Shown here: positions 8,059 through 8,544 of the stretch, in pieces
Position numbering within the stretch: the stretch's first letter is position 1
How the letters are laid out: each line of letters opens with the position of its first letter
Source: a virus
Taxonomy: Duplodnaviria > Heunggongvirae > Uroviricota > Caudoviricetes
Virus record (IMG/VR): IMGVR_UViG_2737471818_000002
Coordinates: 1 to 42,138 of that record
Strand: one strand, 5' to 3'
Length of the DNA stretch: 42,138 nucleotides
The notes under the pieces: model-generated
What the model was told of the DNA's origin: nothing
The model's input: the letters and a program-made list of their open reading frames with translations, nothing else
The model's database searches: none
Program-made: the position numbers and the translations under genes

Positions 8059-8544
8059 ATGAAAAAATCACTGTTAATTATCCCGCTTCTGCTGGCTGGG
8101 TGCGCAAAAGTAAGCGACTATCAGGCAAGTTGCGAGCAACGCTATCCAAAGCTTAGCGATATGGCTAATTGCCTTGATGCCAGCTTGAAGAACGACTCTC
8201 GCATGGCATCAGCACCAACACCTAAGCTGTATGTCCTTGCTGCGAAGATGCTCGGGCAAGGTGTCGATGAAGGCAAGATAAGTGACACACAGGCAAGACT
8301 TGAACTTCAGAATCTTTATGTTCAATTACAAAGCCAAGAACAAGCACAACAAATAGCACAAAGCCAAGCATTCCAGCAGGCTTTATTGAATTATCAGGCT
8401 GTAAACACAATGCAAGCGATCGAGCAAAAAGCGCGCCAGCCTGTTATAACTCAACCTTACCCAACACGCGTTGACACATATACAAACTGCAATTCAGGAT
8501 TTGGAAACACCGTCACATGCAACAGTAGCAGCAACATTAGATAA
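8059..8544 (+). CDS. Prophage-encoded lipoprotein, candidate superinfection-exclusion or host-interaction factor
   Basis: ATG at 8059 with strong RBS AAGGAGAG; signal peptide MKKSLLIIPLLLAGC with lipobox LAGC; Gln-rich coiled-coil C-terminus; opposite strand to structural genes. Confidence 0.65.
   Translation: MKKSLLIIPLLLAGCAKVSDYQASCEQRYPKLSDMANCLDASLKNDSRMASAPTPKLYVLAAKMLGQGVDEGKISDTQARLELQNLYVQLQSQEQAQQIAQSQAFQQALLNYQAVNTMQAIEQKARQPVITQPYPTRVDTYTNCNSGFGNTVTCNSSSNIR

Follow-up and report, generated by a model that had tools for sequence, protein, structure and literature searches.

The window analyzed here is the complete stretch of 42,138 nt in the IMG/VR record IMGVR_UViG_2737471818_000002, and all coordinates are positions in it. 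A gene for a predicted lipoprotein lies on the plus strand and converges on a gene for an ejection protein. The locus and the related features of the window are as follows:

5327..7219, minus strand, tailspike
7451..7645, plus strand, small orf59a/HkcD-like ORF of 64 aa (PHROG 3202)
7651-7670, bidirectional hairpin directly 3' of the orf59a/HkcD-like ORF, corresponding to the P22 t-mnt/HK620 tORF59A terminator
7659..8024, minus strand, hkcC-like ORF of 121 aa (PHROG 1365), divergent from the lipoprotein gene and common to P22 and HK620
7994..8024, plus strand, sequence identical to P22 PsieA (TTGGTA, 19-nt spacer, TTTCAT), from alignment A3 against the P22-pbi annotation
8022..8052, plus strand, conserved joint of ~30 nt, CATGGTATCCTGCGCAAAACTAAGGAG, which includes AAGGAG and at which the P22 homology ends
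8059..8544, plus strand, lipoprotein gene of 161 codons plus stop, a member of PHROG 6067
8547..10664, minus strand, gene 16-type ejection ("DNA transfer") protein (phrog_770, 6.8e-217)
about 24220-25437, putative lysis cassette, assigned from position and ORF sizes

Between positions 7337 and 8052 the window is 97.5% identical to P22, and the equivalent region of the P22-pbi record carries annotations of both PsieA and sieA ("P sieA" at L006 3159-3189). Alignment A3 shows identity with P22 through PsieA and the Shine-Dalgarno sequence up to AAACTAAGGAG, followed by divergence. This end of the P22 homology at the Shine-Dalgarno sequence indicates that the lipoprotein ORF replaces sieA. The same joint is found 5' of the lipoprotein gene in at least five otherwise unrelated upstream flank types of IMG/VR contigs. 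The PsieA-identical sequence is contained in the 5'-terminal part of the divergent hkcC-like ORF and is a weak promoter, which obtains no score in a consensus promoter scan and is absent from the other upstream flank types of the gene. Based on the P22 annotation, it is regarded as the putative promoter of the lipoprotein gene.

The gene thereby shows the position typical of sieA, flanked by genes 16 and 9, oriented antisense to the late operon, and preceded by PsieA. Its stop codon is separated by 2 nt from that of the convergent gene 16, and in 77 of 80 viral contigs a long minus-strand ORF at the gene 16 position ends 2 to 188 nt past the lipoprotein stop. The convergent arrangement with gene 16 is likewise present in Serratia. 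In Proteus phage Brookers and in prophages of Providencia and Tatumella, an Arc/Mnt-family gene, Mnt-type in Providencia, is followed on the same strand by the lipoprotein gene, which again converges on gene 16; the mnt/arc repressor gene upstream in these three genera is lysogen-expressed. A prophage remnant of E. coli LR-31 keeps the lipoprotein gene together with gtrABC, the tailspike gene, and ejection-protein genes.

Signal, sorting, and domain structure of the predicted lipoprotein

The 161-aa product of the ORF begins with MKKSLLIIPLLLAGC and matches the PHROG 6067 profile over its full length (2.9e-109; residues 1 to 161 of 161), a profile matched as well by all 63 members of the distant-relative alignment A4. 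The start codon is placed at 8059 and not at the upstream ATG at 8008, because every homologue begins at the equivalent of 8059. The initial annotation described a gene with a strong ribosome-binding site and a textbook lipoprotein signal with the lipobox LAGC, encoded on the strand opposite to the virion genes, and the analysis agrees on each of these points. The Shine-Dalgarno sequence AAGGAG is located at 8043-8048, 10 nt 5' of the ATG, and the tailspike gene, gene 16, and the genes onward are all on the minus strand. The N terminus, MKK-SLLIIPLL-LAGC, shows a positive n-region (MKK), a hydrophobic core, and a lipobox, in accordance with the sequence definition of bacterial lipoproteins applied here ([LVI][ASTVI][GAS]C after a positive n-region and a hydrophobic core).

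Cys15 is the predicted lipidated first residue of the mature protein and is followed by Ala at position +2. The lipobox is found in all 50 close relatives and in 60 of 63 distant relatives, and the +2 residue of the close relatives is Ala in 47 and Val in 3. In E. coli, Asp at position +2 of lipoproteins serves as the Lol-avoidance signal. None of 110 sequences of the family carries Asp at +2, and with a canonical lipobox this leads to the prediction of an outer-membrane lipoprotein. The mature protein contains no transmembrane helix. Strong purifying selection (dN/dS of 0.076 among 48 distinct alleles) and homologues forming 90 clusters at 90% identity across the Enterobacterales show the ORF to be a real gene; nearly all database records label it merely "hypothetical protein."

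The AF2 model ma97eb3b401a3 (pLDDT of 83) begins with a bundle of helices, continues with a Gln-rich helix of 50 residues, and ends, after a proline linker, in a hairpin stapled by Cys residues. The coding sequence is divided accordingly:

8059..8103, plus strand, signal peptide (residues 1-14) and lipobox L12-A13-G14-C15, read from the sequence
8104..8283, plus strand, conserved helical domain, residues 16-75, with helices 18-28, 32-45, 47-51, and 53-70 (pLDDT 92-97)
8284..8433, plus strand, single long helix, residues 76-125, in the AF2 model
8434..8541, plus strand, Pro-rich linker (126-140) followed by the Cys144...Cys154 β-hairpin, in the AF2 model

All 50 close relatives contain exactly four further cysteines (Cys25, Cys38, Cys144, and Cys154), and the Cys25/Cys38 pair of the helical domain is invariant in 96 sequences. 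The start of the long helix (DAR.ELQ..YV) is conserved and packed on the bundle in the model. Residues 84 to 125 consist of 33% Gln, and among the distant relatives this segment, varying in length and composition, appears to behave as a variable-length spacer. Of the Gln-rich coiled coil and the Cys-containing C terminus proposed initially, the Gln richness and the two C-terminal cysteines, Cys144 and Cys154, are present. The coiled coil is rejected: the region, modelled as part of one long helix, shows no heptad periodicity of its hydrophobic residues, its best register showing an a/d enrichment of 0.08 versus a shuffle mean of 0.20 (p~0.997), worse than 99.7% of shuffles in a crude home-made shuffle test used in place of a trained predictor.

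The C-terminal hairpin is built on the motif TNC-x3-GN-x3-C, with strands modelled at residues 139-146 and 152-159 at a pLDDT of ~60. At least three sequence types of this tail exist, and the identities of the N-terminal part and the tail are discordant between lineages, which points to the tail as a swappable module whose type is exchanged between lineages. Purifying selection is strongest here, with a dN/dS of 0.016 and a dS of 0.40 within a tail type. The fold, an uninformative helical bundle, gives no match to those of SieA, Cor, Llp, Bor, or TraT, and the searches reveal no resemblance in sequence or fold to any known exclusion protein.

Exchange and distribution of the gene

The lipoprotein gene is common to the 80 viral contigs at an identity of at least 96%. 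At a threshold of at least 90% identity, sharing among these contigs amounts to 97 to 100% for the gene, only 21% for the upstream flank, and only 15% for gene 16. At least four very different gp16 types adjoin the gene; coevolution with the neighboring gp16 is rejected, as the same allele (at least 96% identity) stands beside at least four unrelated gp16 types. Comparison of these contigs characterizes the gene as a discrete mosaic cassette that is shuffled independently of its flanks. The properties of a moron are thus found in its variable presence and flank-independent exchange (see also PMC2629481), with the promoter of its own being deduced from the P22 annotation.

Neither the window nor any other locus bearing the lipoprotein gene contains a homologue of SieA type A or B (TBLASTN with P22 and HS1 SieA, E≤0.01; types A, B, and C according to the classification of Leavitt et al. 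2024 [PMC10883804]), and at this locus the lipoprotein never accompanies SieA type A or B. The gene is found in 186 of 5,426 complete E. coli genomes, compared to 35 with sieA type A, 21 with type B, and 117 with hkcB. A genome-collection scan with the close alignment gives matches in only four species-representative genomes, in agreement with an accessory gene. With few exceptions, the close family is confined to P22-like phages, beside gene 16. The hosts of the family include plant, insect, soil, and environmental Enterobacterales, and this spread argues against a mammal-specific role.

A profile search adds 232 distant representatives at 50% identity, most of them nameless metagenome singletons on short contigs. 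One lies in an integrase/DnaB mobile element, and others have a chromosomal context, beside uvrC/earP/bio genes, beside rluD, and in one further nonphage neighborhood. A function unrelated to phage is possible because some distant relatives are such chromosomal lipoproteins in housekeeping neighborhoods, and the fold may have a general envelope function. In a Tatumella prophage, a homologue of Rap1a-type T6SS immunity proteins (PF18602, 1.1e-13) is encoded directly 5' of the lipoprotein gene, both genes belonging to one mnt-proximal gene string. A "T6SS immunity lipoprotein" model matches 2 of the 63 distant members weakly (E~0.003).

Relation to known envelope proteins of phages

Searches of Pfam, NCBIfam, and PADLOC, including Bor, TraT, Rap1a, and curated immunity families, give no family match to the lipoprotein at E≤1, and a literature search found no description or experimental report of any family member. 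Paralogy or mimicry of another prophage protein is rejected, as TBLASTN against the window gives nothing below an E value of 0.4. A role as o-spanin or in lysis is rejected as well: the match to an Rz-like spanin PHROG is weak and covers the signal peptide only, and the gene, which runs antisense to the late operon, lies a long way from the position of the lysis genes and has no i-spanin nested with it.

P22 SieA blocks DNA injection, with escape mutations located in gp16 and gp20, and is carried by only 22 of 66 P22-like phages (PMC10883804). The lipoprotein gene resembles sieA in its slot, which is bounded by gene 16 and the mnt side of the ant moron, in its orientation, and, within the window, in the PsieA promoter sequence and Shine-Dalgarno sequence. 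The products are similar in size (164 aa for SieA and 161 aa for the lipoprotein), and both are envelope proteins, the lipoprotein by prediction. In contrast, SieA is a polytopic inner-membrane protein with the cytoplasmic motif FxRYPxEAxxFNK and shows no sequence similarity to the lipoprotein. The latter has a signal of the cleavable lipoprotein type, contains four periplasmic cysteines, lacks transmembrane helices, and is predicted to be sorted to the outer membrane. BLASTP of P22 SieA against the lipoprotein gives no match, and TBLASTN of SieA against the window gives nothing better than an E value of 1.5. Membership in the SieA family (types A and B) is rejected on the basis of this missing homology and of the topology. 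Given the predicted outer-membrane location, unlike that of SieA, any block of entry must act from the outer-membrane or periplasmic side and not from the inner membrane. HK620 HkcB, a further envelope protein common in E. coli, is encoded at exactly this position, following the same upstream sequence. HkcB is not a lipoprotein and shows no sequence relationship to the one described here; its 109 aa comprise an N-terminal transmembrane helix and charged helical repeats.

The lipoprotein of the lytic phage T5, Llp, resides in the outer membrane, inactivates the receptor FhuA, and is known to protect progeny virions from wasteful ejection into debris or infected cells. Cor of phi80, N15, and HK022 is a small phage outer-membrane lipoprotein that blocks infection at the envelope and inactivates FhuA (PMC11436027). 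The protein described here shares with both the small size of a phage-encoded lipoprotein, a canonical lipobox, and a known or predicted outer-membrane location. Unlike them, it is helical, about twice their size, and equipped with a long spacer and a Cys hairpin. Its dissimilarity to Cor and Llp, already remarked on in the initial annotation, is reflected in similarities limited to the signal peptide. Membership in the Cor family is rejected because the match to PHROG 1119 is confined to residues 1-29 (E=0.092), with just 2 of 63 distant relatives reaching an E value of ~4e-4; similarity to the solved structure of T5 Llp is likewise rejected, as the PDB profile match 8a60_B (E=0.54) covers residues 2-31 only. 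Beyond this signal-peptide alignment, the PDB profile search gives no match. The P22-like podoviruses that carry the gene bind O-antigen and not FhuA, so the target would differ from that of Cor and Llp.

Lambda Bor/Iss and F TraT are likewise lipoproteins of the outer membrane that a mobile element expresses in the cell carrying it; they differ in size and fold and function in serum resistance or surface exclusion. The lipoprotein Ltp of the Streptococcus phage TP-J34 binds the tape measure protein and thereby blocks DNA injection (PMC10883804, PMC3952083). Ltp is the closest mechanistic analogue of the exclusion function favored here: both would be prophage-encoded lipoproteins on the surface or periplasm side with a proposed action on the DNA-delivery machinery and not on adsorption. 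Ltp differs in its Gram-positive host, its siphovirus background, and its architecture, and gives no match in the PDB profile search although its structure is solved.

Candidate functions at the envelope

The lipoprotein gene is best explained as a moron that a P22-like E. coli prophage carries within its "ant moron" and as an alternative occupant of the P22 sieA slot; its likeliest function, judged about evenly probable, is superinfection exclusion at the envelope. The initial annotation had proposed exclusion from the lipoprotein features and the strand only. The slot, the promoter, the mnt/arc position, the exclusivity with SieA, and the shuffling of the cassette provide stronger, though circumstantial, support than was at hand there. 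The position in the moron region would by itself be guilt by association only, as the same region also holds regulators (mnt, arc, and ant) among other genes (PMC2629481). The lipoprotein is a plausible and good candidate for a new phage-blocking factor at the envelope, for which the chances stand level.

The following arrangement at the envelope is proposed. Like sieA, the gene would be expressed weakly from the prophage; its product would be lipidated, delivered by Lol to the outer membrane, where it would sit in the inner leaflet, and would carry two periplasmic disulfides. The helical bundle, a helix of ~7 nm, and the proline linker would hold the small disulfide-stapled hairpin out into the periplasm. 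Here, the lipoprotein may hinder DNA delivery by incoming phages from the outer-membrane side. The target may be the ejection-protein conduit (gp7/gp20/gp16) or the needle on their way across the outer membrane and periplasm. As an alternative, the lipoprotein could mask a host component of the outer membrane or periplasm that incoming phages need. The swappable C-terminal hairpin may act as the specificity determinant. A far-reaching version, considered improbable, combines these elements into the first outer-membrane-anchored inhibitor of the podovirus ejection-protein conduit: the lipoprotein would reach ~7 to 10 nm into the periplasm, its hairpin capping or misdirecting the gp7/gp20/gp16 tube of P22-like phages, the tail types would set which phages are excluded, and the chromosomal relatives would form a previously unrecognized, host-encoded family of periplasmic antiphage lipoproteins.

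A lysogenic-conversion lipoprotein whose benefit to the host is unrelated to phage entry is a less probable but tenable alternative. Such a benefit could lie in immunity, within the periplasm, to a toxin directed at the peptidoglycan or envelope (a T6SS effector or bacteriocin), in protection from envelope stress, or in Bor-like resistance to serum or host factors. The chromosomal distant members in nonphage neighborhoods fit this proposal, as do the Tatumella gene directly 3' of the Rap1a-type immunity homologue (PF18602) and the frequent encoding of host-fitness factors by morons (PMC2629481). It is opposed by the lack of any Bor, TraT, Rap1a, or curated immunity family match at E≤1, by the weakness of the "T6SS immunity lipoprotein" matches (E~0.003 in 2 of 63 distant members), and by the near confinement of the close family to P22-like phages beside gene 16, where it alternates with sieA. 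The spread among plant, insect, and soil Enterobacterales opposes the variant of mammal-specific virulence.

A role in the lytic cycle of the phage itself and not in defense of the lysogen is unlikely. The protein would keep progeny virions from ejecting wastefully into debris of the envelope or into cells already infected, or would modulate the envelope when the phage itself delivers its DNA or lyses the cell. The placement between the late genes 16 and 9, with a stop 2 nt from that of gene 16, speaks for such a role, as does T5 Llp, a lipoprotein of a lytic phage named "lytic conversion lipoprotein" in the PDB. In addition, the replaced gene, sieA, is upregulated on induction (PMC10883804). 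However, the lipoprotein gene is antisense to the late operon and retained in the truncated LR-31 remnant, and the putative lysis cassette lies elsewhere, around 24220-25437; this role also overlaps mechanistically with exclusion instead of ruling it out. That the ORF is a nonfunctional or decaying hitchhiker with no selected function, as the annotation "hypothetical protein" in nearly all records and some truncated database copies (e.g., fragments of 98 to 138 aa) might suggest, is highly improbable and effectively refuted by selection and conservation: dN/dS is 0.076 over the 48 alleles and 0.016 in the tail despite a dS of 0.40, the lipobox and four cysteines are invariant across genera, the gene stays intact while both flanks are exchanged, and the predicted fold is confident.

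P22 SieA is the only characterized block on DNA injection by short-tailed phages and is absent in two-thirds of the P22-like phages (PMC10883804). The lipoprotein gene occupies the same promoter-proximal slot and outnumbers each of the tested SieA types, A and B, several-fold among complete E. coli genomes. Without an exclusion function, the family would still represent a conserved, structured, and widely exchanged prophage lipoprotein. If exclusion is true, the lipoprotein would account for what many "sieA-less" P22-like prophages use instead and would provide a second handle, from the outer-membrane side, on the poorly understood gp7/gp20/gp16 trans-envelope conduit. It would then also bear on the host range of O-antigen-specific phages that are candidates for therapeutic or typing use in E. 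coli, Salmonella, Serratia, Klebsiella, Yersinia, and Proteus.

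The sieA slot and its occupant

The window is an E. coli prophage of mosaic, P22-like (Lederbergvirus-type) make-up, with the order integrase, gtrABC, tailspike, a short 'ant moron', genes 16, 20, 7 and so on. Villafane and colleagues gave the name 'ant moron' to the interval between genes 16 and 9, which is in rapid flux, with ten types among sixteen genomes (PMC2629481).

Features of the window
2556-5295 (+): gtrA/gtrB/gtrC-type O-antigen glucosylation cluster, adjoining the integrase
5327..7219 (-): tailspike gene
7337..8052: stretch with 97.5% identity to P22
7963-7985 (-): 10-bp GC-rich hairpin and then a T-rich tract, terminator-like, late strand
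7994-8024: sequence identical to PsieA of P22
8043-8048: Shine-Dalgarno sequence AAGGAG
8059..8544 (+): lipoprotein gene
8547-10664 (-): gene 16

The 161-aa protein encoded by 8059..8544 reads MKKSLLIIPLLLAGC/AKVSDYQASCEQ...TNCNSGFGNTVTCNSSSNIR. A mechanical ORF list puts its start at the upstream ATG 8008, but 8059 is the start, because MKK is the beginning common to every homologue. The initial annotation described a lipoprotein signal, a ribosome-binding site and an orientation opposite to the virion genes, and the window sequence bears this out. The signal is built like that of bacterial lipoproteins, from an n-region, an h-region and a lipobox (L-A-G-C15); AAGGAG is spaced 10 nt from the ATG; and all virion genes (tailspike, ejection genes from 8547 onward, head genes beyond) lie on the minus strand. 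The ORF is a real gene and not a chance ORF: the match to the PHROG 6067 profile covers the full length (2.9e-109), dN/dS is 0.076 across 48 distinct alleles, and the family contains 90 clusters at 90% identity from Escherichia, Citrobacter, Serratia, Cronobacter, Klebsiella, Pectobacterium, Yersinia, Morganella, Providencia, Tatumella and other hosts. The Cronobacter dublinensis relative P0023 (161 aa, 73% identical) is labelled 'general secretion pathway protein GspK' in NCBI records, almost certainly a mis-annotation, as the family has no other tie to GspK.

In the P22-pbi annotation, the stretch matching 7337..8052 contains orf59a, the t-mnt terminator and the PsieA promoter, followed by sieA converging on gene 16. 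Base-by-base alignment shows identity of the window and P22 across the whole annotated PsieA through AAACTAAGGAG, beyond which they diverge completely. Since identity ends right after this sequence, the lipoprotein ORF replaces the sieA ORF precisely and, judged from the alignment, appears to inherit the sieA promoter sequence and ribosome-binding site. The stops of the lipoprotein ORF and gene 16 are 2 nt apart. A third gene in the slot, behind the same upstream DNA, is hkcB of HK620, whose product has an N-terminal transmembrane helix.

Window 7200-7400 matches HK620, which annotates the remnants as tANT/tMNT terminators. Here mnt is reduced to its last ∼30 nt (the match begins at 2501 of the P22-pbi record L006, within mnt at 2280-2531), and arc and ant are absent; the prophage therefore lacks the immI antirepressor circuit and keeps the sieA-side half of the moron. 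The terminator-like hairpin falls within an hkcC-like ORF and shortly precedes the PsieA-homologous sequence. The gtr cluster, recognized by comparison with the annotated E. coli LR-31 locus, is predicted to give the prophage a second, receptor-modifying superinfection barrier. The closest copy of the lipoprotein gene (99.6% identity) is found in the LR-31 prophage remnant (L001, NZ_AP027520.1 3440951-3453751), which keeps intS, gtrABC, the tailspike gene, an hkcC-like gene, the lipoprotein gene and genes 16 and 20, followed by fragments only of genes 7 and 4 and then by torI and host genes. In LR-31, the surface-modifying and envelope genes persisted longer than the rest of the phage.

A self-contained module

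The lipoprotein gene is present on 125 viral contigs of IMG/VR, the best 80 of which (≥96% identity) were analysed. At ≥90% identity, window 8100-8500 is common to 97-100% of these best 80 contigs, upstream 7300-8000 to only 21% and gene 16 to only 15%. At least five unrelated upstream flanks converge on one ∼30-nt joint, CATG(G/A)TATCCTG.G.AAAACTAAGGAG, which may act as a recombination linker for swapping cargo genes into the slot. The joint corresponds to window 8022-8052 and to the equivalent position in the contig loci L022-L101 and in L006, where it is also upstream of P22 sieA; in the window and P22 its first nucleotides form the start codon of a gene diverging on the minus strand. Downstream of the lipoprotein gene, 77 of the 80 contigs have a long minus-strand ORF at the position of gene 16, with its end 2-188 nt away; in sequence, these ORFs belong to four or more widely divergent types. 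No homologue of either P22 SieA (type A) or HS1 SieA (type B, with the sequence taken from E. coli HS) is found in the window or any lipoprotein-bearing locus. The lipoprotein gene is thus a self-contained module alternating with sieA types A and B. Among 5,426 complete E. coli genomes, megablast detects it in 186, always on the chromosome, and hkcB in 117, sieA type A in 35 and type B in 21, which makes it the commonest of these four occupants in E. coli at megablast sensitivity. A 2024 study of SieA describes sieA as absent from most P22-like phages (PMC10883804).

Gene order at the lipoprotein gene in other genomes
Proteus phage Brookers: Arc/Mnt-family gene, 17-nt gap, lipoprotein gene converging on gene 16
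Providencia alcalifaciens: mnt, 153-aa single-TM ORF, lipoprotein gene converging on gene 16
Tatumella terrea: arc/mnt-like gene, Rap1a-like gene, lipoprotein gene converging on gene 16 with an added SLT domain
Serratia marcescens: tailspike, Bro-N antirepressor, lipoprotein gene converging on gp16
Enterobacteriaceae MAG: lipoprotein gene converging on an 886-aa SLT-gp16

Since expression of Mnt, the maintenance repressor, is obligatory in P22 lysogens, a position directly behind an mnt-type gene and on its strand is indirect evidence that the lipoprotein may be expressed from the prophage. The Tatumella gene between the mnt-like and lipoprotein genes (L013 4604-4942) encodes a secreted 112-aa homologue of Rap1a (T6SS immunity; PF18602, 1.1e-13; PHROG 3870), which suggests that the slot is able to gather several periplasmic protective proteins. 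The Providencia ORF (L012 4519-4980), on the same strand as mnt and the lipoprotein gene, has a single transmembrane helix, at the N-terminus, and matches nothing in Pfam or PHROG. The adjoining gp16 proteins are extremely diverse (window 8547-10664 (-); L013 5468-8125; L009, the MAG, 1762-4422). In Tatumella (Pfam 7e-24) and the MAG, gp16 has an SLT lytic transglycosylase domain at its N-terminus; window gp16 matches 'transglycosylase' and 'lytic tail fiber' PHROGs with residues 34-315 and does not match Pfam SLT.

Protein architecture and the exchangeable tail

All 50 of 50 close relatives have the lipobox, exactly four further cysteines, and Ala or Val at position +2, never Asp, the inner-membrane retention signal of E. 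coli. Cys25 and Cys38 never vary among 96 sequences, and Cys154 hardly does. Cysteines arranged in this way point to two disulfides and so to an oxidising compartment, the periplasm. The AlphaFold2 model obtained with the 96-sequence alignment (mean pLDDT, 83) shows a compact bundle of helices 18-28, 32-45, 47-51 and 53-70 packed on the first part of a single helix of 50 residues, 76-125, with block means of 85-97 across residues 21-120. A proline-rich linker and a β-hairpin (139-146/152-159; pLDDT about 60) follow, and the Cys-bearing C-terminus noted earlier is found here, with Cys144 and Cys154 on the hairpin. Of the Gln-rich coiled coil in the initial annotation, the composition stands (33% Gln in the helical residues 84-125), but the coiled coil is dropped, as the segment has no heptad pattern and even its best register scores below 99.7% of shuffles. 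It differs in length and composition among distant relatives; it is a helical spacer for which no coiled coil can be demonstrated.

Identity to the window protein is discordant between residues 15-127 and the tail, residues 128-161: the relative P0025 shows 89% and 21%, respectively, and P0017 shows 73% and 94%. This discordance shows exchange of the tail by recombination. The family has at least three tail types, namely, ...TNCNSGFGNTVTCNSSSNIR at the end of the window protein, ...TTNCTTYGNQTRCQSY, and ...STNCYKLGNNVQCNSSY, found in the analysed alignment in Morganellaceae and some unnamed metagenome sequences. With a dS of 0.40 and a dN/dS of just 0.016 for the window type, the tail is the most tightly constrained part of the lipoprotein. 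A constrained yet swappable tail fits the expectation for a binding or specificity element.

Wider family and proposed function

A profile search of 1.84 billion representatives yields 232 relatives at E≤1e-3. They are mostly 125-140 aa and resemble the window lipoprotein in plan: lipobox, Q..CE-x11-C, KLYxLxA...DAR.ELQ..YV, variable spacer, TxC...G...C..Y. In curated family searches no family claims any of them, and homology to a known housekeeping lipoprotein is not found. Their readable contexts are three chromosomal and one mobile, the rest being on short, uninformative contigs.

Readable contexts of distant relatives
Chromosomal: adjoins uvrC/pgsA/earP/bio genes
Chromosomal: adjoins rluD and a yfiH-like gene
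Chromosomal: adjoins Sel1, thioredoxin and Lon-domain genes
Mobile: integrase/DnaB mobile element

The phage gene is thus a member of a lipoprotein superfamily that is older, has no name and extends beyond viruses, and the chromosomal relatives make a reading centred purely on phages less secure.

The superinfection exclusion initially proposed, here placed at the envelope, is favoured with moderate confidence. Established for the lipoprotein are its locus, promoter-sequence identity, lipobox, conservation, modularity and exclusivity with sieA. It would be made at a low level from the prophage, lipidated and Lol-sorted to the inner leaflet of the outer membrane, where the bundle, the ∼7-nm helix and the linker would present the Cys hairpin, with two disulfides in the protein, in the periplasm. 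In P22-like virions, gp7, gp20 and gp16 build a trans-envelope conduit, and Cor and Llp mask an outer-membrane component for FhuA-dependent phages. The periplasm-facing lipoprotein could act on this conduit or the needle from the side opposite SieA, or it could, like Cor and Llp, mask a host outer-membrane or periplasmic component required by phages. Its likeness to Cor and T5 Llp is limited to the signal peptide, in line with the lack of resemblance claimed at first. SieA, a polytopic inner-membrane protein unrelated to the lipoprotein, blocks the P22-like conduit at the inner membrane, with escape mutations in gp16 and gp20 (PMC10883804). Like SieA, the lipoprotein is independent of the adjacent gp16 type.

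A benefit to the host that has nothing to do with phage entry, for instance immunity to a toxin or protection of the envelope, is less likely, with the chromosomal relatives and the Rap1a-like neighbour in Tatumella in its favour. A role in the phage's own lytic cycle, e.g., shielding progeny from abortive ejection, is still less probable, and an ORF without function, contradicted by the selection data, is hardly credible.

A literature search found no description of the lipoprotein. A prophage moron whose product is an envelope protein, probably serving exclusion, is an already known kind of element; the lipoprotein family, its architecture and the predicted site of action are new. The lipoprotein is an inexpensive and well-defined experimental target.
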